Assembly (NCBI GenBank): GCA_963836075.1
Contig: CAWIIB010000001.1
Location: forward strand, 288,001 to 352,000
Direction of reading: 5' to 3'
Length of the DNA stretch: 64,000 nucleotides
Source: an uncultured Acidobacteriota bacterium
Lineage (GTDB): Bacteria > Acidobacteriota > JAQAZP01
Under the pieces are notes generated by a model, which saw nothing but the letters and a program-made list of their open reading frames with translations, was not told the DNA's origin and did no database searches. Of this stretch, positions 12,254 to 53,271 are shown piece by piece. Both the position numbers and the translations under genes were made by a program. How positions within the stretch are numbered: the first letter of the stretch is position 1; every line of letters begins with the position of its first letter.

Positions 12254-12422
12254 GTGGGTCTCCAGGTGTATCAGCGGCGCCCCGCAATGGGGCGCCCGAA
12301 TAATTCCACGGGTTTATCGTTCTCCTGCCTTGGCTCTCTTAGCACCTTCCCCACGGAAAGTCAAGAAGCCGGCAGCTCCATCTGATCGCTTAAGCACTGC
12401 AATGTAAACAACATAAGGCTCG

Positions 12423-12962
12423 CTACTCGTCTTCCTCCTCAACAGTGAGACGAATCAGCGGATCCCCCATGGCGGCAGCGTCCCCCACCGCCAGTGGAAG
12501 GCTGTGCACCGAGCCGTTCACCGGACTGAGCACCGGATTCTCCATCTTCATCGACTCCAGGATGACCAGCAGGTCTCCGGCGGTCACCCTGTCCCCCACC
12601 GCCACCGGCAGTCCGACCACCTTGCCGGGCATGGGAGAGAGGATGTCCCCCTGTTCATTGATATCGCCGCCGGTGTCTGCGTTCCCCGGCCCTGATGACC
12701 CCTGATCGTCGTCAGCCGGATCGGCCAGGCGGTAGATCCGGCCCCGGTACTGCAGATGAACCTGCCCCGATTCATCCCGGGCCAGGTGGACCAGGTGCGC
12801 GGTTCCGTCGTCGGCCAGCAGGGAAATGGTGTTCGGACCGGCGCGCAGCCAGTCCCCGGCGAGCTGCTCACCCTCCACGGTCAGCGAAAAAACCTGCCCC
12901 GGGCCGGAGTCCAGCCTGAAGTTGTGCATCGTCCCGTCCTGGTCTCGATATTCAAGATCCAT
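12423..12962 (-). CDS. Biotin carboxyl carrier subunit (BT-like plus biotinyl domain) of an acyl-CoA carboxylase
   Basis: SPMPGKVV and the biotinylation motif ESMKMEN. GGAGG before ATG 12962; overlaps the end of the biotin carboxylase gene. Confidence 0.92.
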   Translation of the reverse strand: MDLEYRDQDGTMHNFRLDSGPGQVFSLTVEGEQLAGDWLRAGPNTISLLADDGTAHLVHLARDESGQVHLQYRGRIYRLADPADDDQGSSGPGNADTGGDINEQGDILSPMPGKVVGLPVAVGDRVTAGDLLVILESMKMENPVLSPVNGSVHSLPLAVGDAAAMGDPLIRLTVEEEDE

Positions 12963-14502
12963 CTGGTCCTCCGTCTGCCCCGTCCGTCTCCACCAGGGGT
13001 ATGGAATCTCCAATTTGCCAGGAACCGCAGAGCTGCCAGGGGGAGGCCAACACCGCGCCACTGCTTGTTCCGGTTGCCGCGGCGGCCGGACGCATCTGCT
13101 CCAGCCCGGCGGCCGCCAGAACCGCGGCGGGAATGGCGCCGTCCCCGCTGCCGGGGATCCAGTCGCCCATGTGGCGCGGTATGAAGTCGGTGTAGGTGTC
13201 CCCGGAAGCAAAAGCCGGGTGGTCGATCACGTCGGCCAGGTAGCCGCAGGTGGTCTGAATGCCCAGCACCACCATGTCACGCAAGGCCCGGCTCATTTTG
13301 TGCCGGGCCTGCTCACGGTCCTCGCCCCAGACGATCAGCTTGGAGAGAATCGGGTCGTAGTCCATGGTGACTTCGAAACCGCTGAAGATGGCGCTGTCGT
13401 TGCGAATTCCCGGCCCCATGGGCTCAAATGCGTACAGAATCCGGCCCGGGGACGGCATGAAGTTGTTGCCGGGGTCCTCGGCATAGATCCGGCACTCGAT
13501 GGCGTGGCCCTTCTGCTGCACATCCTTCTGGGAGATGGTCAGCGGCTCGCCGGCTGCGATGCGGATCTGCCACTGGACCAGGTCCACGCCGGTGACCAGT
13601 TCGGTAATCGGGTGCTCCACCTGGATGCGGGTGTTCATTTCCAGGAAGTAGAAACTGCCGTCGGTGTCCAGCAGGAATTCAACCGTCCCGGCGTTGGTGT
13701 AGCCCACGGCCTCGGCGGCCTGCACCGCTGCATGGCCCATGGCCTGCCGGACCTCGGGGGTCAGCGCCGTGGACGGTGATTCTTCGACGATTTTCTGGTG
13801 CCGCCTCTGGATCGAGCACTCCCGTTCGCAGAGGTGAATGGTGCGTCCGTGGTGATCGGCCAGCAACTGGATCTCAACGTGCCGGGGCAGCTCGATATAC
13901 TTTTCCAGGAACACGGTGCTATCGCCGAAAGCGTTGCCCGCCTCCCGTTGCGCCGATTCCAGGGACAGGCGCAGGTCGTCCTCGGATGCGGCCACCCGCA
14001 TGCCCTTGCCGCCGCCACCGGCGGCGGCCTTGACCAGCACCGGGTAGCCGATCTTCCTCGCTTCCCGGATGAACTGCTCCTGATCACCGGCCGGCGGCGA
14101 GGCCCCGGGGATCACCGGCACGCCGGAACTGGTCATCAGCTGCCGGGATTCCACCTTGTTGCCCATCAGCCGCATCGCTTCGGCGGGAGGGCCGATAAAG
14201 GTCAGGCCCGCCTCGGTCACCTGCCGGGCGAACTGATGGTTTTCGGCCAGAAATCCGTATCCCGGGTGGATGGCGTCGGCCCCGCACTGCCGGGCCGCGT
14301 CGATAATCGAGTCGATCCTCAGATACGATTCCAGCGGCGAAGCCGGGCCGATACAGAACGCCTCGTCGGCCAACTGCACCGGCAGGCCCAGACGGTCCAC
14401 CTCGGAAAAAACCGCCACTGACGGTACGGAAAGTTCGCGGCAGGCCCGGATGATGCGAACGGCGATCTCTCCACGATTGGCAACCAGTATTTTTTTGAAC
14501 AT
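12952..14502 (-). CDS. Biotin carboxylase subunit (methylcrotonyl-CoA carboxylase alpha-like)
   Basis: MFKKILVANRGEIA, HPGYGFLAEN, GGGGKGMR, RECSIQRRHQK, EMNTRIQVEHP. Confidence 0.95.
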   Translation of the reverse strand: MFKKILVANRGEIAVRIIRACRELSVPSVAVFSEVDRLGLPVQLADEAFCIGPASPLESYLRIDSIIDAARQCGADAIHPGYGFLAENHQFARQVTEAGLTFIGPPAEAMRLMGNKVESRQLMTSSGVPVIPGASPPAGDQEQFIREARKIGYPVLVKAAAGGGGKGMRVAASEDDLRLSLESAQREAGNAFGDSTVFLEKYIELPRHVEIQLLADHHGRTIHLCERECSIQRRHQKIVEESPSTALTPEVRQAMGHAAVQAAEAVGYTNAGTVEFLLDTDGSFYFLEMNTRIQVEHPITELVTGVDLVQWQIRIAAGEPLTISQKDVQQKGHAIECRIYAEDPGNNFMPSPGRILYAFEPMGPGIRNDSAIFSGFEVTMDYDPILSKLIVWGEDREQARHKMSRALRDMVVLGIQTTCGYLADVIDHPAFASGDTYTDFIPRHMGDWIPGSGDGAIPAAVLAAAGLEQMRPAAAATGTSSGAVLASPWQLCGSWQIGDSIPLVETDGADGGPDGS

Positions 14503-14507
14503 CCAGA

Positions 14508-15320
14508 TCAGTCTCCGTTATCGTCGGAAATGGACCACGACGGTATTCGACGTTCGAGAAAAGAACTCACGCCCTCCCGGCCCTCGTCGCCGGCGCGCAA
14601 GCCGGCGATAACCCCTGCGGTGTAAGGCCCGGCTTCGTCCAGCGACATCCCGGGCACCTTGTGCAGCAGTTCCTTGCAGGAGGCCATTGCGCGTTTGCCG
14701 TTGGCCAGCAACCGGCGAACCAGGGCGTCCACTGCCTGGTCCAGTTCCAGCGGTGCGGCCACGCGGTGAACCAGCCCCAGCCGCTGGGCCGTGGCCGCGT
14801 CAAAACGGTCGCCGGTGAGGAACAGCTCTCGGCAGGCACTGTCCCCCAAACGCCTGATCACGTATGGTGCGATGCAGGCCGGAGACAGCCCCAGCCGCAC
14901 CTCGCTGAAACCGAACAGGGCGTCGGGGACGGCGATGACGATATCGCACACTGCCACCAGGCCCATCCCTCCGCCGATCACCGGGCCGTGAACCCTGCCC
15001 ACCAGCGGCTGGGGCAGCTGGTACAGCGCCCGCAGACAGCGGGCCAGGCCCATAGCATCCTCGAGGTTCTGCTCTTTGGTGAACCCGGCCATCCTCCGCA
15101 TCCAGTCCAGGTCGGCGCCGGCGCAAAAAGATTTTCCGGCACCGGCCAGCAGCACAACTTTCACCGTCTGGTCTGACGCCAGGCGCTCGGCGGCTTCGGC
15201 GAGTTCGGCCAGCAACCGCTCGTCAAAGGCGTTGTGGATTGCGGGCCGGGACAGGGTCAGCGTGGCCACCGGGCCATCGGTCACCAGAGTGATCCTCGGC
15301 ATTTCTGCAGAACGGGGCAT
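14508..15320 (-). CDS. liuC: Enoyl-CoA hydratase family, methylglutaconyl-CoA hydratase (LiuC-like)
   Basis: HNAFD, FCAGADLDWM, GGGMGLVAVCDI, FSEVRLGL, EGREGVSSFLERR. Lies between the carboxylase subunits. Alternative start at 15302. Confidence 0.85.
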   Translation of the reverse strand: MPRSAEMPRITLVTDGPVATLTLSRPAIHNAFDERLLAELAEAAERLASDQTVKVVLLAGAGKSFCAGADLDWMRRMAGFTKEQNLEDAMGLARCLRALYQLPQPLVGRVHGPVIGGGMGLVAVCDIVIAVPDALFGFSEVRLGLSPACIAPYVIRRLGDSACRELFLTGDRFDAATAQRLGLVHRVAAPLELDQAVDALVRRLLANGKRAMASCKELLHKVPGMSLDEAGPYTAGVIAGLRAGDEGREGVSSFLERRIPSWSISDDNGD

Positions 15321-15347
15321 GATTCCTCGCGGTGTCTGGTTCCGGCC

Positions 15348-16958
15348 CTACATCCGGAAGACGCCGAAATTATGGTCCGGGATCGGCGCGTTGAGCGACA
15401 TGGAGATGGCCAGGGCAAAAGCGGTCCTGGTGTCCAGCGGATCGATGATCCCGTCATCCCACAACCTGGCGCTGGCGTAGTACGCGCTGCCCTCGCGGGC
15501 GTAGCGCTCGAGGATCGGCGCCTTGAACTCCTTCTCCGTCTTCTCGTCCATCAGCGCCTCGCCGGCAGCACGCAACTGATCCTGCTTGATGGTGAACAGC
15601 ACGTCGGCCGCCTGTTCGCCGCCCATCACGGAGATCTTTGCCGTGGGCCACATCCAGAGCAGCCTCGGGAAATATCCGCGGCCGCACATGGCGTAGTTGC
15701 CGGCCCCGTGGGATCCCCCGACGATCAGGGTGAACCGGGGAACCTGGGCGGTGGCCACGGCGTGGACCATCTTGGCCCCGTCCTTGGCGATGCCGCCGTG
15801 CTCGTAGTCCTTGCCGACGATGAAACCGGTGATGTTCTGGAGAAAGATCAGCGGGATCTTGCGCACCGAGCAGAGGCTGACGAAGTGGGCGCCCTTTTGC
15901 GCGCTCTCCGAAAAGAGCACGCCGTTGTTGGCCAGGATGCCCACCGGGTAGCCCATGATGTGGGCGAAGCCGGTGACCAGGGTGGTGCCGTAATTTTCCT
16001 TGAATTCGTGGAAACGGCTGCCGTCCACCAGGCGGGCGATCACTTCGCGCATGTCGAACGGTTTGCGCAGGTCGCGGGGAATGACGCCCAGCAGTTCTTC
16101 GGCGTCGTAATACGGCTCTTCCGGTTCGACGATGTCCTGGAAAGTCTTGGGCTTCCGCGGTATGTTCTGGAAAATGTTTCGTGCCAGCTGCAGCGCGTGC
16201 TCGTCGTCCCGGGCGTAATGGTCGGACACGCCGGAGATGCGGGTGTGCACATCCGCCCCGCCCAGTTCCTCGGGCGTCACATCCATCCCGGTGGCCGCCT
16301 TGACCAGCGGTGGGCCGCCGATGAAAATCGTGCCCTGTTTCCTGACGATGATCGTCTCGTCGCTCATCGCCGGGACGTAGGCGCCGCCGGCGGTGCAGGA
16401 ACCCATGACGATGGAGATCTGCGGGATGGCCAGCGCGGACATCTGGGCCTGGTTGTAGAAGATCCGGCCGAAGTGGTCCTTGTCCGGAAAGACCTCCTCC
16501 TGCAGGGGCAGGAATACCCCACCGGAGTCAACGAGGTAGACGCAGGGCAGGTGGTTGTTCAGGGCAATTTCCTGGGCCCTGGCGTGTTTCTTGATCGAGA
16601 TGGGATAGTAGGAGCCGCCCTTCACCGTCGGATCGTTGGCCACCACCAGAACTTCCTGGCCGTGAACCGTGCCCACGCCAGTGATCACGCCTGCGGCGGA
16701 GGCCTCCTTGTCGTAGAGGTCATAGGCGGCGAACTGGCTGAACTCGAGAAAGGGGCTGTTGCGATCGAGAAGCTTCTCGATACGCTCACGTGCGGAGAGC
16801 TTGCCCCGGGCCTTCTGCCGCTCCCGCGCTTTCGGCGGACCTCCCGCCTTGATCACCGCCTGCCGCTGCTTGAACTCGGCGAGCTGCTTTTGGTAATGGG
16901 CCTTGTTATCCTTGAACTCGCTGGAACTGGTGTCGATCTTTGATTCGATTCGATACAT
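15348..16958 (-). CDS. liuB: 3-methylcrotonyl-CoA carboxylase carboxyltransferase (beta) subunit
   Basis: [53 protein letters not shown] are MCC-beta signatures. Confidence 0.93.
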
Positions 16959-17035
16959 GGCTCGCTTTCAGGCGTCCGGAGTTGTATGGCCGTTCACCCG
17001 CGGCCACCAGGGAGCGGCCGCGGGCTGCGCGGGGA

Positions 17036-17428
17036 TCAGACCGGCACCCCCTTGTGTCCGTAGCAGATAATGCCCGCCTCGCCGTCGGCGGAGATCTTGC
17101 GGAACTCCAGCTTCACCCGCTGGCCGATGGCCAGGCCATCCGGGTCGCAGTCCACGATCTGGGCCATCATCCGTCCGCCGCCCTCGGTTTCCACCAGGCC
17201 GACGGCATAGGGCGCCTGGTCCACAAAGCGGCTGGGGGCCACGCGGATCACGGTGAAGGTGAGCAGTTTTCCTTCCAGGGGCAGGTTGACCTTCTCGAAG
17301 GTACGGCACTGGCATGCCGGGCAGATCAACCGCGGGGGATAGCAGATCTTGCCGCAGGCGGTACACTTGCCAGCTTCGAGACGGTAGAACTGCGGTCGCT
17401 CTCTCCAGTAGGCCGGCTGACTCTTCAT
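17036..17428 (-). CDS. DUF35 Zn-ribbon/OB-fold protein
   Basis: CTACG...PPRLICPAC, GKLLTFTVI, PYAVGLVE, GIICYGHK. Its ATG directly follows the thiolase TAG. Confidence 0.93.
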   Translation of the reverse strand: MKSQPAYWRERPQFYRLEAGKCTACGKICYPPRLICPACQCRTFEKVNLPLEGKLLTFTVIRVAPSRFVDQAPYAVGLVETEGGGRMMAQIVDCDPDGLAIGQRVKLEFRKISADGEAGIICYGHKGVPV

Positions 17429-18592
17429 CTATACACCCTCCAGAATGTGAACCACCGTGCTGCCGCCGCTGCCGCCCATGTTCTGGGCCAGGGCCAGGCG
17501 GGCTCCGGTGATCTGGCGTTCGTCGCATTCGCCGCGCAGTTGCTTGACCAGCTCGACGATCTGGGCCACGCCGGTGGCGCCCACCGGGTGTCCTTTCGAC
17601 TTCAGTCCGCCGCTGGGATTCACCGGAACGGGTCCGCCGATGGCGGTCTGGCCGGAGGCCACGGCCTCGGCACCCTTGCCCCGCTCGAAGTAGCCCAGGG
17701 CCTCGGTAACGCAGATCTCGGCGATGGTGAAGCAGTCATGGACCTCGGTGACCTGAATGTCGGATGGGGTACGACCGGCCATTTTAAAGGCGGCCGCCGC
17801 TGCCCGTTCGGTGGCGCCCAGCCAGGTCAGGTCGTCCCGGGAGTGCAGGGCGATGGTGTCGGTGGAGTGCCCGCTGCCGGTGACCTTCACCGCCGGGGAC
17901 TTCTTCTTCGACAGGTCGCCAACCATGGACATGGGGCAGAGAATGACCGCGGCCGCACCATCGGTGATCGGCGAGCAGTCGAGGATGTGCAGCGGGTCGG
18001 CCACCATCACCGAGTTGATCACCTGCTCCACCGTGACCTTGTGCGGGTACTGGGCGTAGGGGTTGTTCGACCCGTTGAGATGGTTCTTCACCGCCACCGC
18101 GGCCAGCTGCTCGCTGGTGGCGCCGTACTGGTCCATGTACGCCCGGGCGATCATGGCGTAGAGACCGGGGAAGGTGATTCCGTGGTAGCCCTCGTACGTC
18201 TGGTCGGCGGCGGTGGAGAGCGCGTAGGTCGCCTCGTCACCACCGATGTCGGTCATCTTTTCCACACCGCCAACCAGCACCACGTCGCTGATCCCGGAAG
18301 CCACCTCCATCCAGCCCTGCCGAAAAGCGAGCCCGCCGGAAGCGCAGGCCGATTCCACCCGCACCGCGGGCACCGGCCCGAGGCCCAGGTAGTCGGCCAT
18401 CAGCGAGCCCAGGTGCTCCTGGCCGTTGAACAGGCCGCCGGACATGCAGCCGATATACAGGGAGTCAATGCGGTCCACGCCGGCATCGTCGATGGCATTC
18501 AAGGCCGCCTCGACATAGATGTCGCGCAGGGATTTTTCCCAGAGCTCCCCCCATTTCATCATTCCAACACCGATGACGGCAACATCCCTCAT
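17429..18592 (-). CDS. Archaeal/SCP2-type thiolase (acetyl-CoA acetyltransferase)
   Basis: VESACASG (catalytic Cys), [21 protein letters not shown], and AQNMGG in place of the CxG of classical thiolases. Confidence 0.93.
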
Positions 18593-18611
18593 CGTTTGGT
18601 TCCCTCCTTGG

Positions 18612-19664
18612 TTATTCGGCCATCCGGATCTTGCCCCGGCACTTGGCGTAGGCCCCGTATTCCAGGTAGCGTTTGTCGTTGTCCAGCATCACCCGGGTTT
18701 TGCCGGTCAGGTCGCGGACCTCGTCGATGCGGTCGGTCACCGTCCAGACAAAGGCATCGCTGCCGGAGCCGGATCCGTAGGAGACCATCAGGATCTTGTC
18801 CCCGGGCTTGGCCACGTCCAGGGTGGCGGTGAGGCCGATGGGGGAGGCGCCGGAATAGGTGTTGCCCAGCCACGGCGAGAGCCAGCCCGGCTCCATCTGC
18901 TCGTCGGTGAAGCCGAGCATCCGGCCCGCCCGCTGGGGAAATTTGCCGTTGGGCTGGTGAAACACCGCGTAGGTGAAATCTTCGGGTTTCATCCCCGACT
19001 TCTCGAGGATGGCATTGGCCGCGCCCAGGGTGTGGCTGAAGTAGGCCGGCTCACCGGTGAACCGCCCGGCATGGCGCGGGTAGTGCATGTACTCGCGGCG
19101 CCAGAAATCGGGGGTATCGGTCATGAACGAGTCGGTGAAGTTGCAGACGGCAACCAGGTCGGTGTTGCCCATGATGAAGGCGGCGGCTCCGGCAGCCGCC
19201 GAGTACTCCAGGGCGTCGCCGGGGGCTCCCTGGGACGTGTCGGCACCGATGCCCAAAGCGTACTTCACCTCGCCGGCCTTGACCAGGCTCATGGCAACGA
19301 ACATCCCTTCCGACCCGGCCTTGCAGGCGAATTCCATGTCGGCGCAGTGGATGCCCGGTGTGGCGCCGAGGGCTTCGGCCACTACGGTGCCGCTGGGCTT
19401 GACCGCGTAGGGGTGTGATTCAGATCCGATGTAGATCGCGCCGATGTCCTGTGGGTCAACGCCGCCCGAGCGTTTGAGCGCTCTCCGGCCGGCCTCCACC
19501 GACATGGAAATCACGTCCTGGTCAGGGGCCGGAACCGATTTCTCGTAGAGCATCAGTCCTTTCTTGTAGCTCGGAGCGTCGGCCCCCCAGACCTTGGCAA
19601 TCTCCTCGACCTTGATACGTTGCCGGGGGATTGATGACCCGTATCCCACAATTCCAACTTCCAT
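18612..19664 (-). CDS. Archaeal-type hydroxymethylglutaryl-CoA synthase
   Basis: [11 protein letters not shown] (Glu), EFACKAG (Cys), FHQPNGKFP (His), [40 protein letters not shown]. Confidence 0.95.
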
Positions 19665-19735
19665 CGGATCTCCTCCTTGGGCCGCCGTGGCGGCCGGGCT
19701 CAAACCGGCGGTCTTTGCCCGCCGGCGGATTTCGA

Positions 19736-20878
19736 TCAGTCACTCATCAGGGCGCGTGAAATGACGATGCGCTGGATCTCCGAGGTGCCCTCGTAAATCG
19801 TGGTCACCCGTGCATCGCGGAAAAATCTCTCCACCGGGTATTCGCGGGAATAGCCGTAGGCCCCGAAAATCTGCAGGGCGTTGGAGGTGACGCGGTTTGC
19901 CATTTCAGAACAGAAGAGCTTGGCCATGGACGCTTCCTTGCCGTGTTTTTCCCCGCGGTCCTTGCGCAGGGCGGCGCGGAGCATCAGCAGGTTGCCGGCT
20001 TCAATTTCGGTGGCGGCATCGGCCAGCATGAACTGCACCGCCTGGTGCTGGGCCAGCTGGCGGCCGAAGGTTTCCCGTTCCCGGGAATAGGCCAGCGCCT
20101 CCTCGAAGGCGCCCCGGGCCATGCCGATGCACTGGGCCGCCACTCCGATCCGGGCGCCGTCGAGGGTGGAGAGCGCGATCTTCAGCCCCATGCCCTCTTC
20201 GCCCAGCAGGTTCTCCTGGGGTACGAAGCAGTCCTCGAGGATGATCTCCGTGGTCATGGAGCTCTTCAGTCCCATCTTCTCTTCGGCCTTGCCGAAACGG
20301 AACCCCTTCATCGACGGGTCGAGGATGAACGCCGACAGCCGTTTGGAGCCGGATTCGGGCGCGGTGACCAGCAGCACCACGAAGGCCTGGCCCACCAGCC
20401 CATTGGTCACCCAGGATTTGACCCCGTTACAGGTATAGCCGCCGTCGGTTTTTTCAGCCTTGGCCTGCAGCGCCGAAGCGTCGGAACCGGTGCCCGGCTC
20501 GGTGAGCGCGAACCCGCCGATATAGTTTCCGGCGGCCGACGGTTCAAGATATTTGCGCTTCTGCTCTTCGCTGCCGAAGTTGATCAGCGGCCCGCAAAAG
20601 ACCGAGTTGGTCACGCTGACCGTGATGGCGGTCGAGGGGCAGACCGCGGCCAGTTCCCGGATGGCCAGACACGAACTGACCATGTCCAGCCCTGCGCCGC
20701 TGAAGGTATCCGGGACCATCATGCCCAGCAACCCCAGCTCCCCGAGCTTGTTGATGATCTGGTGCGGGAACTCTCCCTGCGGCTCGTAGTCCTTCACCGC
20801 CGGCGCGATTTCGCTCTGGCCGAAATCACGGACCATCTCCATCACCATTTGCTGTTCTTCGGTCATCTGAAATTCCAC
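19736..20878 (-). CDS. Acyl-CoA dehydrogenase (short/branched-chain family)
   Basis: FALTEPGTGSDA, QIFGAYGYSREYPVERFFRDARVTTIYEGTSEIQR. GTG start with AAGGAGG RBS. Confidence 0.94.
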   Translation of the reverse strand: MEFQMTEEQQMVMEMVRDFGQSEIAPAVKDYEPQGEFPHQIINKLGELGLLGMMVPDTFSGAGLDMVSSCLAIRELAAVCPSTAITVSVTNSVFCGPLINFGSEEQKRKYLEPSAAGNYIGGFALTEPGTGSDASALQAKAEKTDGGYTCNGVKSWVTNGLVGQAFVVLLVTAPESGSKRLSAFILDPSMKGFRFGKAEEKMGLKSSMTTEIILEDCFVPQENLLGEEGMGLKIALSTLDGARIGVAAQCIGMARGAFEEALAYSRERETFGRQLAQHQAVQFMLADAATEIEAGNLLMLRAALRKDRGEKHGKEASMAKLFCSEMANRVTSNALQIFGAYGYSREYPVERFFRDARVTTIYEGTSEIQRIVISRALMSD

Positions 20879-21083
20879 AACCAGTTCCTCCTTCGCCCGG
20901 CGGTGGCAGCGTCGACACCATGAGCGTGATCGTGGGCTGATGTCTCCGGGACCCGGAATCGATCCGGTGCACCGACTACTAAAAGACCGCGGAGGGGGCG
21001 CGGGCCGGTAAAGCACACCGGCTGCACCGCGCCGTCTTTCCGAAGGGTCTCGGCAGGCCGCTGGGCCGCGGGTGATGCGGCGC

Positions 21084-52075: not shown

Positions 52076-53215
52076 TCAGGAAAAGAGCTTGCGGGCGATG
52101 ACCAGCTTCTGGATTTCGGAGGTGCCCTCGCCGATGGTGCAGAGTTTGCAGTCGCGGTAGATCTTCTCCACCGGATAGTCCTTGGACATGCCGTAGCCGC
52201 CGAAGATCTGCACCGCCTTGTTGGAGTTGCGCACGCTGCACTCGCCGGCGTAGTACTTGGCCATGGCCGATTCCTTGTTCACTTCCTTGCCCTGGTCCTT
52301 GAGCTGGGCCGCCTTGAGGGTCAGCAGGCGTGCGGCGTCGGCCTCGGTGGCCATGTCGGCCAGCATCCACTGGATGGCCTGGAAGGAGCCGATGGGCTTG
52401 CCGAACTGCTCCCGTTCCTTGGCGTACTTGATCGAGTGGGCCACCGCCCCCTGGGCCAGACCCACGCCCAGCGCGGCGATGCTGATCCGGCCGCCGTCGA
52501 GGATGCGCAGGGCGTCGATGAAACCCCTGCCCCGCTGGCCCAGCAGGTTCTCCTTCGGTATGCGGCAGTCCTCCATCACCAGCTGGGCCGTGTCGCTGGA
52601 ACGCATGCCCAGCTTGTTCTCCTTGCCGGCATAGCTGAACCCCGGAGTGCCGGACTCGATGATGAAGGCCGAGGCCATCTTGCTGCCGGCGTCGGGGTCG
52701 GTCACCGCCAGCACCACCGAGATCTTGCCCACGGTGGCGTGGGTGATAAAGGTCTTGTTGCCGTTGAGCACCCAACTGTCTCCGTCCTCCACGGCGGTGG
52801 TGCGCATGCCGCCGGCATCGCTGCCCGAACCGGGTTCGGTGAGGGCCCAGGCGCCGATGCTCTCCCCGCTGCAGAGCCGGGGCAGGTACTTCATTTTCTG
52901 ATCTTCGGTTCCGCAGAGATTGATGTGATTGGTGCAGAGCGAATTGTGGGCGGCAATGGTGAGCCCCACCGACCCGTCCACCCGGGCCAGCTCCTCGAGG
53001 ATCAGGACGTAGTGGATGTAACTCATTCCCGCCCCGCCATATTTCTCATCGAAGATGATGCCGAACATGCCCAGCTCGGCCAGCTTTTTGGCGATGGGCC
53101 AGTGGAACTCCTGGGACTCGTCATACTCCATGATCACCGGGGCGATCTCTTTCTCCGCGAACTCGCGGACCATGTCCCGGATCATCAGGTGGTCTTCGGT
53201 GAGGTTAAAATCCAC
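52076..53215 (-). CDS. Acyl-CoA dehydrogenase
   Basis: AAHNSLC, WALTEPGSGSDA, LDGGRISIA, YRDCKLCTIGEGTSEIQK. GTG start after GGAGG. Confidence 0.95.
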   Translation of the reverse strand: MDFNLTEDHLMIRDMVREFAEKEIAPVIMEYDESQEFHWPIAKKLAELGMFGIIFDEKYGGAGMSYIHYVLILEELARVDGSVGLTIAAHNSLCTNHINLCGTEDQKMKYLPRLCSGESIGAWALTEPGSGSDAGGMRTTAVEDGDSWVLNGNKTFITHATVGKISVVLAVTDPDAGSKMASAFIIESGTPGFSYAGKENKLGMRSSDTAQLVMEDCRIPKENLLGQRGRGFIDALRILDGGRISIAALGVGLAQGAVAHSIKYAKEREQFGKPIGSFQAIQWMLADMATEADAARLLTLKAAQLKDQGKEVNKESAMAKYYAGECSVRNSNKAVQIFGGYGMSKDYPVEKIYRDCKLCTIGEGTSEIQKLVIARKLFS

Positions 53216-53271
53216 GACGTCCTCCGTAAACGTATGATAAATAAACACCTCTATTCAATTGCAATGGCAGG

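Follow-up and report, generated by a model that had tools for sequence, protein, structure and literature searches.

Archaeal-type HMG-CoA synthase, thiolase and DUF35 genes joined to a 3-methylcrotonyl-CoA carboxylase operon without HMG-CoA lyase in an uncultured Acidobacteriota bacterium and its relatives

We describe here a run of eight genes in a 64,000-nucleotide stretch of DNA (‘the window’) from an uncultured Acidobacteriota bacterium (assembly GCA_963836075.1, contig CAWIIB010000001.1, positions 288,001 to 352,000), in which three genes for an archaeal-type 3-hydroxy-3-methylglutaryl-CoA (HMG-CoA) synthase module precede those for a 3-methylcrotonyl-CoA carboxylase (MCC). A listing of open reading frames (ORFs), combined with family searches, places all eight on the minus strand and co-directional between positions 12423 and 20878, exactly as an earlier reading of the letters alone (the ‘sequence-only reading’) had them. 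Read along that strand, they encode: an acyl-CoA dehydrogenase (ACAD) of the Bcd/SCAD type (19736-20878); an archaeal-type HMG-CoA synthase (HMGCS; 18612-19703); an archaeal/SCP2-type acetoacetyl-CoA thiolase (17429-18592); a DUF35 scaffold protein (17036-17428); the carboxyltransferase MCC-beta (15348-16958); a crotonase (14508-15320); a biotin carboxylase (BC; 12952-14502); and a stand-alone biotin carboxyl carrier protein (BCCP; 12423-12962). The spacers calculated from these coordinates are, in order, 32, 19, 0, 77, 27 and 5 nt, and the BC and BCCP genes overlap by 11 nt, so that the close spacing previously described (from an overlap up to 77 nt) also stands.

The second to fourth genes form a trio. 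The synthase scores 525 bits against NF003274 (cut-off 244) and 524 bits against TIGR00748 (cut-off 353), and aligns over its full length with PDB chain 6ESQ_I (456.6 bits). It carries the motifs EFACKAG and FHQPN, which are present in 66/66 related copies, and the SES-type Glu motif, present in 64/66; we take these motifs to hold the catalytic Cys, His and Glu, respectively. The thiolase gene, beginning 19 nt past the synthase stop, encodes a protein that exceeds the cut-off of PRK06064 (540 bits against 420), falls under that of NF053570 (532 bits against 600) and matches 6ESQ_A with 387 bits over residues 1-385. Abutting the thiolase stop, the DUF35 gene combines a zinc ribbon and an OB fold (PF01796, 77.9 bits; PF12172, 25.6 bits), with two CxxC pairs in its translation; a longer overlapping ORF (16968-17528) has no Pfam match. 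By likeness to the solved complex, the three proteins would be expected to assemble and to channel acetoacetyl-CoA.

The four genes downstream make up a carboxylase half. MCC-beta (PF01039, 514 bits) aligns with its Pseudomonas aeruginosa and human counterparts at 733 bits (3U9R_B) and 724 bits, compared with 441 bits for geranyl-CoA carboxylase (GCC) beta and approximately 260 bits for PCC-beta; these scores place the carboxyltransferase with MCC and apart from PCC and GCC. The crotonase (PF00378, 163.5 bits) reaches the cut-off of none of the curated models, the best being PRK07468 (268.8 bits) and PRK05674, a gamma-carboxygeranoyl-CoA hydratase model (231 bits against a cut-off of 426), and its best PDB relatives are unnamed crotonases. 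Because of its position, and because it is 41-52% identical to the crotonase that takes this place in three classical lyase-containing clusters (discussed below), we read it as a putative 3-methylglutaconyl-CoA hydratase. The BC (516 aa; TIGR00514, 630.7 bits) has the BC N, ATP-grasp and C domains plus a C-terminal extension, and together with the 179-aa BCCP (PF00364, 58.9 bits) represents a split MCC-alpha. The 516-aa ORF overlaps a 262-aa ORF (12423-13211) by 260 nt, an arrangement that might be mistaken for a frameshift in a fused MCC-alpha gene; this is excluded, as BC (about 500 aa; 33 related loci) and BCCP (about 171 aa, homologous to that of the window; 27 loci) are encoded by separate genes in relatives, and the 262-aa ORF is an over-extension of a BCCP gene that begins at 12962.

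At the head of the run, the ACAD (Pfam ACAD N, M and C domains) lies in an ORF spanning 19736-21016; homology begins at residues 48-51, which places the start at GTG 20878 or ATG 20866. Its best PDB matches are 4L1F (394 bits), 2DVL and 5OL2_C, with entries for isovaleryl-CoA dehydrogenase (IVD) at 229-252 bits, and it keeps a YEGT motif that is, we believe, missing from IVD. The enzyme is Bcd/SCAD-like and not IVD-like, as are the trio-adjoining ACADs of relatives L010 and L065 (the two examined). It is a candidate for the step between isovaleryl-CoA and 3-methylcrotonyl-CoA, a substrate predicted from its setting; as the Liu member assumed by the sequence-only reading it is present, but it is neither IVD-like nor a conserved member of the unit, adjoining the trio in 8 related loci only. 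The host genome holds seven ACAD paralogs, one of which lies inside the window at 52076-53248 (minus strand; 45% identity with the ACAD of the operon). Two others (C1:358719-359774 and C9:425682-426755) lack the YEGT glutamate and were considered as IVD; neither is IVD-like by its solved relatives, one matching generic ACADs and the other having no PDB match at E<=1e-80.

A terminator-like hairpin at 20987-21003, between an HU gene and the ACAD gene, and a weak terminator-like site at 12365-12379, past the BCCP gene (both on the minus strand), probably mark the upstream and downstream boundaries of the operon, within which the eight genes may be co-transcribed; both are consensus matches only, and the same scan finds 11 such sites over the region, where shuffled sequence gives 6.2 +/- 2.6. 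No terminator-like site was found by this simple consensus scan in the 77-nt gap between the DUF35 and MCC-beta genes. The gap does contain a G+C-rich inverted repeat (GCGGCC ... GGCCGC, 16990-17022, minus strand) with no T-run, which may fold into a hairpin with a role in processing or stabilisation. In metatranscriptome run X1, a 450-nt contig covers 17231-17680, across the thiolase/DUF35 junction (448/450 letters match), and a 258-nt contig covers 17998-18255 (253/258); 16665-16975, around the DUF35/MCC-beta gap, is uncovered. A very close relative is present in this RNA library; the contigs are assembled, DNA carry-over is possible, and they carry no information on transcription units.

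A scan for HMGCS across one genome per species returned at least 597 relatives, of which we took the best 80 (71-79% identical), a set biased to close relatives; 56 of these 80 loci were informative, each with at least 4.5 kb downstream. In 28/56, an MCC-beta ortholog (at least 55% identity) stands directly past DUF35, colinear and with its start within 3.5 kb, giving the order trio, MCC-beta, hydratase, BC, BCCP. A further 9/56 have MCC-beta elsewhere in the locus (within 10 kb) and 19/56 have none. The juxtaposition of trio and Liu-type genes is not, in other words, peculiar to the host, a point on which the sequence-only reading had asked for a survey. At least eight phylum-level labels occur among the trio-MCC loci, the records of the 80 loci being labelled Zixibacteria, Ignavibacteria, Acidobacteriota/Aminicenantes, Gemmatimonadota, Eisenbacteria, Coatesbacteria, Deltaproteobacteria/Myxococcia, Planctomycetes and others; as the identical order recurs across phyla, the arrangement is far beyond chance. 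By crude ORF clustering, the widely shared families are HMGCS, thiolase, DUF35, MCC-beta, crotonase (35 loci), BC (33) and BCCP (27), and no further gene family is shared broadly, the one other wide cluster being an antisense shadow-ORF artefact. It is this seven-gene unit that is conserved across phyla, and with it the continuous route that the sequence-only reading had drawn between acetyl-CoA and the level of isovaleryl-CoA or 3-methylcrotonyl-CoA.

Other neighbours vary. Chaperone genes (HSP20, DnaK, DnaJ) and the like recur in at most 9 loci, and some clusters are flanked by genes for thiolase II, 3-hydroxyacyl-CoA dehydrogenase and ACAD, or for a B12 mutase and ACAD. In L010 (6720-9939), a methylmalonyl-CoA-mutase-family gene, a B12-binding protein and a Bcd/SCAD-like ACAD sit directly upstream of HMGCS, and L025 (2-1487) shows only the 3' part of the same arrangement, which suggests that a branched acyl-CoA mutase may feed the trio-MCC unit there. 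Four variant loci (L037, L049, L069 and L083; at about 12.6-15.7 kb in each) have a crotonase straight after the trio, in some also a BC (45-53% identity), and no MCC-beta ortholog; the carboxyltransferase, where present, is 33-35% identical, and the L037 and L069 genomes have HMG-CoA reductase (HMGR). The sole exception to the core is L022 (2979-11263), where MCC-beta follows the trio and crotonase and BC matches are absent from the 6.6 kb downstream.

Might the two halves simply be neighbours, with a housekeeping or relic trio lying beside an MCC that has another role, or is served by a non-homologous lyase encoded elsewhere? The trio does occur without MCC-beta within 10 kb (the 19 loci above, in 9 of whose genomes MCC-beta lies elsewhere), and unrelated genes (IS200-like, ThiE, cupin, a T9SS-tail protein) are found inserted between the halves. 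Some relatives have an AtuA-family gene (PF07287 plus a ferredoxin-like domain, about 600 aa) beside MCC-beta; it lies between DUF35 and MCC-beta in L045 (7791-9596) and L047 (9966-11801), and adjoins the unit also in genomes G057, G060, G065, G066 and G070. The host itself has one CitE/HpcH-like lyase gene, on contig C8. We nonetheless consider mere juxtaposition very improbable: the order is held across at least eight phylum-level labels, and AtuA, carried by 11/60 trio genomes and missing from 49/60 and from the host, is rejected as a general answer to the missing lyase. The same conclusion is drawn from a sample of the phylum (described below), where, of the genomes with an MCC-beta at least 68% identical to the window copy, 23/24 carry the trio, against 2/56 of those at 52-65% identity.

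The host genome (6.23 Mb in 10 contigs, 94.7% complete) yielded no HMG-CoA lyase, in the window or elsewhere, the best match to NF004283 being 20.9 bits against a cut-off of 246. That match falls on the same gene as the sole PF00682 match (34.9 bits), which is OadA/5S-transcarboxylase-like. We note here a 607-aa OadA-alpha/pyruvate carboxylase subunit B-like gene at C1:1072011-1073834 (minus strand; 228 bits, below cut-offs), in which the NCBIfam matches reach the C-terminal end, as in biotin-carrying OadA/PycB, and which is probably a further biotin enzyme. Nor does the genome match family-I CoA-transferases (PF01144), a search that is positive in 6/14 reference genomes; the host therefore lacks both a Myxococcus-type AibA/B decarboxylase, which we had considered, and SCOT-type activation of acetoacetate.

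All HMGR and GHMP-kinase matches likewise fall outside the window, so that the absence of lyase and mevalonate genes from it, claimed by the sequence-only reading, holds. Genome-wide the picture is divided: the lack of a lyase agrees with that reading, whereas mevalonate genes do exist far outside the window. They comprise a class II HMGR (TIGR00532, 422 bits), a mevalonate kinase (MVK; 209.6 bits) adjoining a type 2 IDI (351 bits), and a diphosphomevalonate decarboxylase (MVD) split over two frames at L008:967-1948 (C9, approximately 107.5-108.5 kb); one ORF matches profile positions 2-64 (56.7 bits) and the other 76-300 (167.4 bits, cut-off 171.35), so that either the gene is frameshifted or the assembly is at fault. 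The host cannot be called a ‘mevalonate-only organism’, for IspE and the adjoining Dxr and IspG of the methylerythritol phosphate (MEP) pathway are present as well; IspH (PF02401) was not found in the 94.7% complete genome. Judging by this gene content, the host may have two partial or parallel isoprenoid routes.

Branched-chain metabolism presents a similarly mixed inventory. Neither a LeuA-grade match nor ketol-acid reductoisomerase (KARI) was found in the host or in two other species of its genus (G000, G001, G002), and leucine must accordingly be imported. The only Iso_dh locus of the host genome (C9:1627379-1628528) gives two matches of overlapping range (202.1 and 21.8 bits) and may be frameshifted. 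From its genes, the host looks auxotrophic for branched-chain amino acids. Among the other pathways to which the sequence-only reading had pointed, the MEP genes, an E1 of the branched-chain 2-oxoacid dehydrogenase (BCKDH)/pyruvate dehydrogenase type and six POR-family genes are present, while a LeuA-grade match is the missing item.

To see which HMG-CoA enzymes accompany the trio, 60 trio genomes were searched (50 reached via the loci, 9 relatives and the host); these counts used 50 of the 56 informative loci, leaving out six Zixibacteria-labelled colinear loci (L016, L026, L029, L046, L051 and L067). An MCC-beta ortholog (at least 62% identity) is found in 44/60. HMGR is present in 12/60, namely 6/44 of the genomes with MCC and 6/16 of those without an MCC-beta ortholog, so that the trio pairs with the reductase, with MCC or, in the host, with both. 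HMG-CoA lyase exceeds its cut-off in 5/60, and one more genome has two sub-cut-off fragments. Of the 44 genomes with trio and MCC, 6 have HMGR and 3 have lyase, which leaves 35 without either; in most carriers the only recognisable enzymes acting on HMG-CoA would appear to be the synthase and the crotonase of the unit itself. IspG, as a marker of the MEP pathway, is present in 55/60, and the trio is thus not needed for isoprenoids.

These counts bear directly on the proposal that both halves run in their textbook directions into one HMG-CoA pool, from which the reductase (for mevalonate) or an unrecognised sink draws. It has the attraction that no step goes against its usual direction, and it suits the host, with its class II HMGR, MVK, type 2 IDI and two-frame MVD, as well as five other MCC-linked genomes with HMGR (G002 and G044-G047). 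As a general explanation it fails on the 38/44 trio-plus-MCC genomes without an HMGR match and on IspG in 55/60; even in the host, Dxr, IspG and IspE stand beside the mevalonate genes, isoprenoid demand is small relative to leucine flux and HMG-CoA would have no overflow, and no additional conserved gene is linked to the unit as a candidate sink. The sequence-only reading had listed this convergence among its three options; it is possible in the host, and overall we regard it as unlikely.

We next consider how lyase and trio are distributed within the phylum, using 301 evenly drawn genomes, 98 of them MCC-beta-positive and 80 of these examined; left out were 17 genomes of the 52-65% identity group (G281 to G348) and an unpublished genome, G025, which is counted only in the tallies 98/301 and 11/41. 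In the HMGCS-positive genomes a lyase match is found in 7/25, all at 248-289 bits against the cut-off of 246; in the HMGCS-negative genomes it is found in 45/55, mostly at 340-438 bits. In 22/25 HMGCS-positive genomes, a single contig carries both HMGCS and MCC-beta, at a distance of 1.56-3.43 kb. A LeuA-grade PF00682 match follows the same division (2/25 HMGCS-positive against 32/55 HMGCS-negative). In three lyase-type clusters (L093-L095), MCC-beta is followed by the crotonase and then by a 500-aa BC, and the lyase is no more than a few kb away; a BCCP-lyase fusion, considered for these clusters, is rejected, the Pfam match being HMGL-like only and the L093 BCCP match lying in another frame. 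Lyase-type and trio-type clusters share a core and differ in the attached module, lyase or trio.

Synthesising these observations, we tentatively favour, at something short of an even chance, a model of the locus as a Liu-type cluster in which the archaeal-type HMGCS/thiolase/DUF35 complex, running backwards, has taken the place of HMG-CoA lyase. In this scheme, imported leucine would be converted to isovaleryl-CoA by BCKDH or by 2-oxoacid:ferredoxin oxidoreductases, and isovaleryl-CoA to 3-methylcrotonyl-CoA by the Bcd/SCAD-like ACAD of the operon; the split MCC (beta, BC and BCCP) would then carboxylate 3-methylcrotonyl-CoA at the expense of ATP, and the crotonase would hydrate 3-methylglutaconyl-CoA to HMG-CoA. 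The trio, in reverse, would turn HMG-CoA plus 2 CoA into 3 acetyl-CoA, with the thioester conserved and no free acetoacetate, saving one thioester relative to a lyase followed by acetoacetate activation; in the host, the class II reductase could also draw on the HMG-CoA pool. Thiolase condensation stands at about +26 kJ/mol, and if, as we assume, the HMGCS step lies at -25 to -30 kJ/mol, the sum for 3 acetyl-CoA to HMG-CoA plus 2 CoA comes near 0, close to equilibrium; a complex that holds acetoacetyl-CoA bound would aid either direction.

Two considerations lead us to suggest a net flux in this direction. The MCC/crotonase/BC core of lyase-type clusters runs catabolically, and BC is kept in the trio-type unit wherever the sequence suffices (with the exception of L022), which argues for carboxylation as the more likely direction. 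Moreover, as 35/44 carriers offer no other candidate, the trio in reverse would be needed as the exit from HMG-CoA.

Several points weigh against this model, in particular against reversal of the trio in vivo. HMGCS is irreversible by the textbook, and our literature search found no report of its reversal. HMGCS in the MCC-linked loci is 71-79% identical to the window copy, comparable with the 75-79% of genomes with HMGR and without MCC (L036, L037, L040, L066 and L069), and so does not look specialised for working in reverse. None of the seven host ACAD paralogs could be recognised as an IVD, and the host does have the CitE/HpcH-like lyase gene on C8. The anticorrelation of lyase and trio would be equally expected if the MCC-linked form were anabolic, and the scarcity of LeuA in trio-type genomes (the 2/25 against 32/55 above) is predicted more directly by a leucine-sparing route. 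The phylum counts, in addition, are to be read as a pattern and not as a probability, the relatives being non-independent and many genomes being incomplete metagenome-assembled genomes (MAGs).

Some of these same points lend themselves to the opposite, anabolic direction, in which the trio makes HMG-CoA, the crotonase dehydrates it, the biotin enzyme decarboxylates (possibly yielding ATP via BC) and a Bcd/Etf-type ACAD forms isovaleryl-CoA to prime iso-odd fatty acids. Here the trio would work in its known direction, as its unchanged sequence relative to copies in HMGR genomes would fit, and the absence of lyase and HMGR is as predicted; the ACADs here, in L010 and in L065 are Bcd/SCAD-like, their closest solved relatives including enoyl-CoA-reducing Bcd-Etf enzymes. 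A LeuA-grade match is, furthermore, missing in 23/25 trio-type genomes compared with 23/55 lyase-type genomes, and trio-type genomes, being without their own synthesis of 2-oxoisocaproate, would gain from sparing leucine. What makes us doubtful is chiefly the biotin enzyme. BC is conserved in the unit, yet we know of no biotin-dependent decarboxylase that keeps a BC subunit, nor, to our knowledge, is there an example of an ATP-dependent carboxylase acting as a decarboxylase in vivo. By our estimate, reversal against the cellular ATP/ADP ratio would need a large ratio of 3-methylglutaconyl-CoA to 3-methylcrotonyl-CoA, and myxobacteria evolved AibA/B instead of reversing MCC. The homologous core is catabolic in lyase-type clusters, and isovaleryl-CoA is in any case directly available to the host through imported leucine, the BCKDH-like E1 and the six POR-family genes. 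We therefore rate the anabolic direction as the main rival, somewhat less probable than the catabolic one. Both directions had been put forward in the sequence-only reading, as a de novo isovaleryl-CoA pathway and as lyase-free leucine catabolism; both survive, with the catabolic one favoured.

A more far-reaching version of the anabolic scheme deserves mention, though we think it quite improbable. Here BC would run backwards and conserve ATP during de novo synthesis of isovaleryl-CoA from 3 acetyl-CoA, and the product would serve not only as an iso-fatty-acid primer but also, in KARI-positive carriers without LeuA, as a source of the leucine skeleton through reductive carboxylation by a 2-oxoacid:ferredoxin oxidoreductase. 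Among KARI-positive trio genomes of other lineages, 19/28 have no PF00682 match at E<=1e-30, and 16/19 of these have an MCC-beta ortholog. The leucine-skeleton part is inapplicable to the genus of the window, from which KARI is missing too.

Of the known systems, the closest to the carboxylase half is the classical liuABCDE cluster of Pseudomonas, represented in our set by L093-L095. The likeness lies in the orthologous MCC-beta, in the order MCC-beta, crotonase, BC, and in the split of BC and BCCP, which the lyase-type clusters of the phylum share; the operon in the window differs in having no lyase (nor has the genome), in the trio that precedes the core and in an ACAD that is Bcd/SCAD-like instead of IVD-like. 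The gene set for acyclic terpene utilisation (atuA-H) has the carboxylase and crotonase core in common with it, and relatives L045 and L047 carry the AtuA-family gene, but the carboxyltransferase of the window is MCC-type and not GCC-type (733 against 441 bits) and AtuA was not found in the host.

For the trio, the reference is the archaeal complex from Methanothermococcus (6ESQ), with which it shares the three proteins, the gene order, the motifs and the zinc ribbon plus OB fold of DUF35. Voegeli et al. are said to have presented this archaeal HMGCS/thiolase/DUF35 assembly as a channelling complex in 2018; it is also described in PMC12960953. The differences are that the host is a bacterium, that the trio is joined to an MCC operon and that most bacterial carriers lack HMGR and have IspG, because of which the product of the trio in most of them would not be destined for mevalonate.

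A functional parallel is offered by the Aib pathway of Myxococcus xanthus, which joins HMG-CoA and isovaleryl-CoA via 3-methylglutaconyl-CoA, likewise without a lyase and likewise in association with limited leucine. Its enzymes are MvaS, LiuC, AibA/B and AibC, and it constitutes a second source of isovaleryl-CoA. The window has, by contrast, an archaeal-type HMGCS with thiolase and DUF35 in place of MvaS, and an ATP-dependent biotin carboxylase in the place of AibA/B. The Aib route has been described as this second source, used when leucine is limited (PMC5389471). For the reversal itself, the nearest likeness, one of mechanism and not of family, is to the reversed oxidative tricarboxylic acid (TCA) cycle, in which a Claisen condensation with thioester hydrolysis is likewise reversed. 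Citrate synthase carries out this condensation-plus-hydrolysis chemistry and runs backwards in that cycle. A precedent is given in 10.1101/2024.11.06.622199.

A literature search, outside which lay the supplement of PMC12960953 with its listing of 1,030 clusters, found no published description of the trio joined to MCC. The same 2026 survey gives 1,001/1,030 bacterial HMGS/ACAT/DUF35 clusters as having no adjacent secondary-metabolism genes, and the words ‘leucine’ and ‘carboxylase’ are absent from its main text (PMC12960953). In Cloacimonetes MAGs, genes for HMGCS and thiolase have been noted without the remaining mevalonate pathway and beside a complete MEP pathway, a case from the FCB group that is left unexplained in the account given there (PMC7852524).

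The link between trio and MCC gives such orphan HMGCS and thiolase genes a concrete, testable job, and points to an undescribed connection between acetyl-CoA and leucine-derived carbon. Either direction, if true, would amount to enzymology not yet shown in vivo: a reversed HMGCS acting as a thioester-saving replacement for the lyase, or a reversed, ATP-yielding biotin carboxylase. This would be relevant to pathway design around the HMG-CoA node, and also to genome interpretation, for automatic annotation would score the carriers as having a ‘partial mevalonate pathway’ and ‘incomplete leucine degradation’. The unit also bears on how leucine and iso-branched lipids may be handled by the Zixibacteria, Ignavibacteria, Acidobacteriota and Gemmatimonadota, lineages abundant in sediments and soils.

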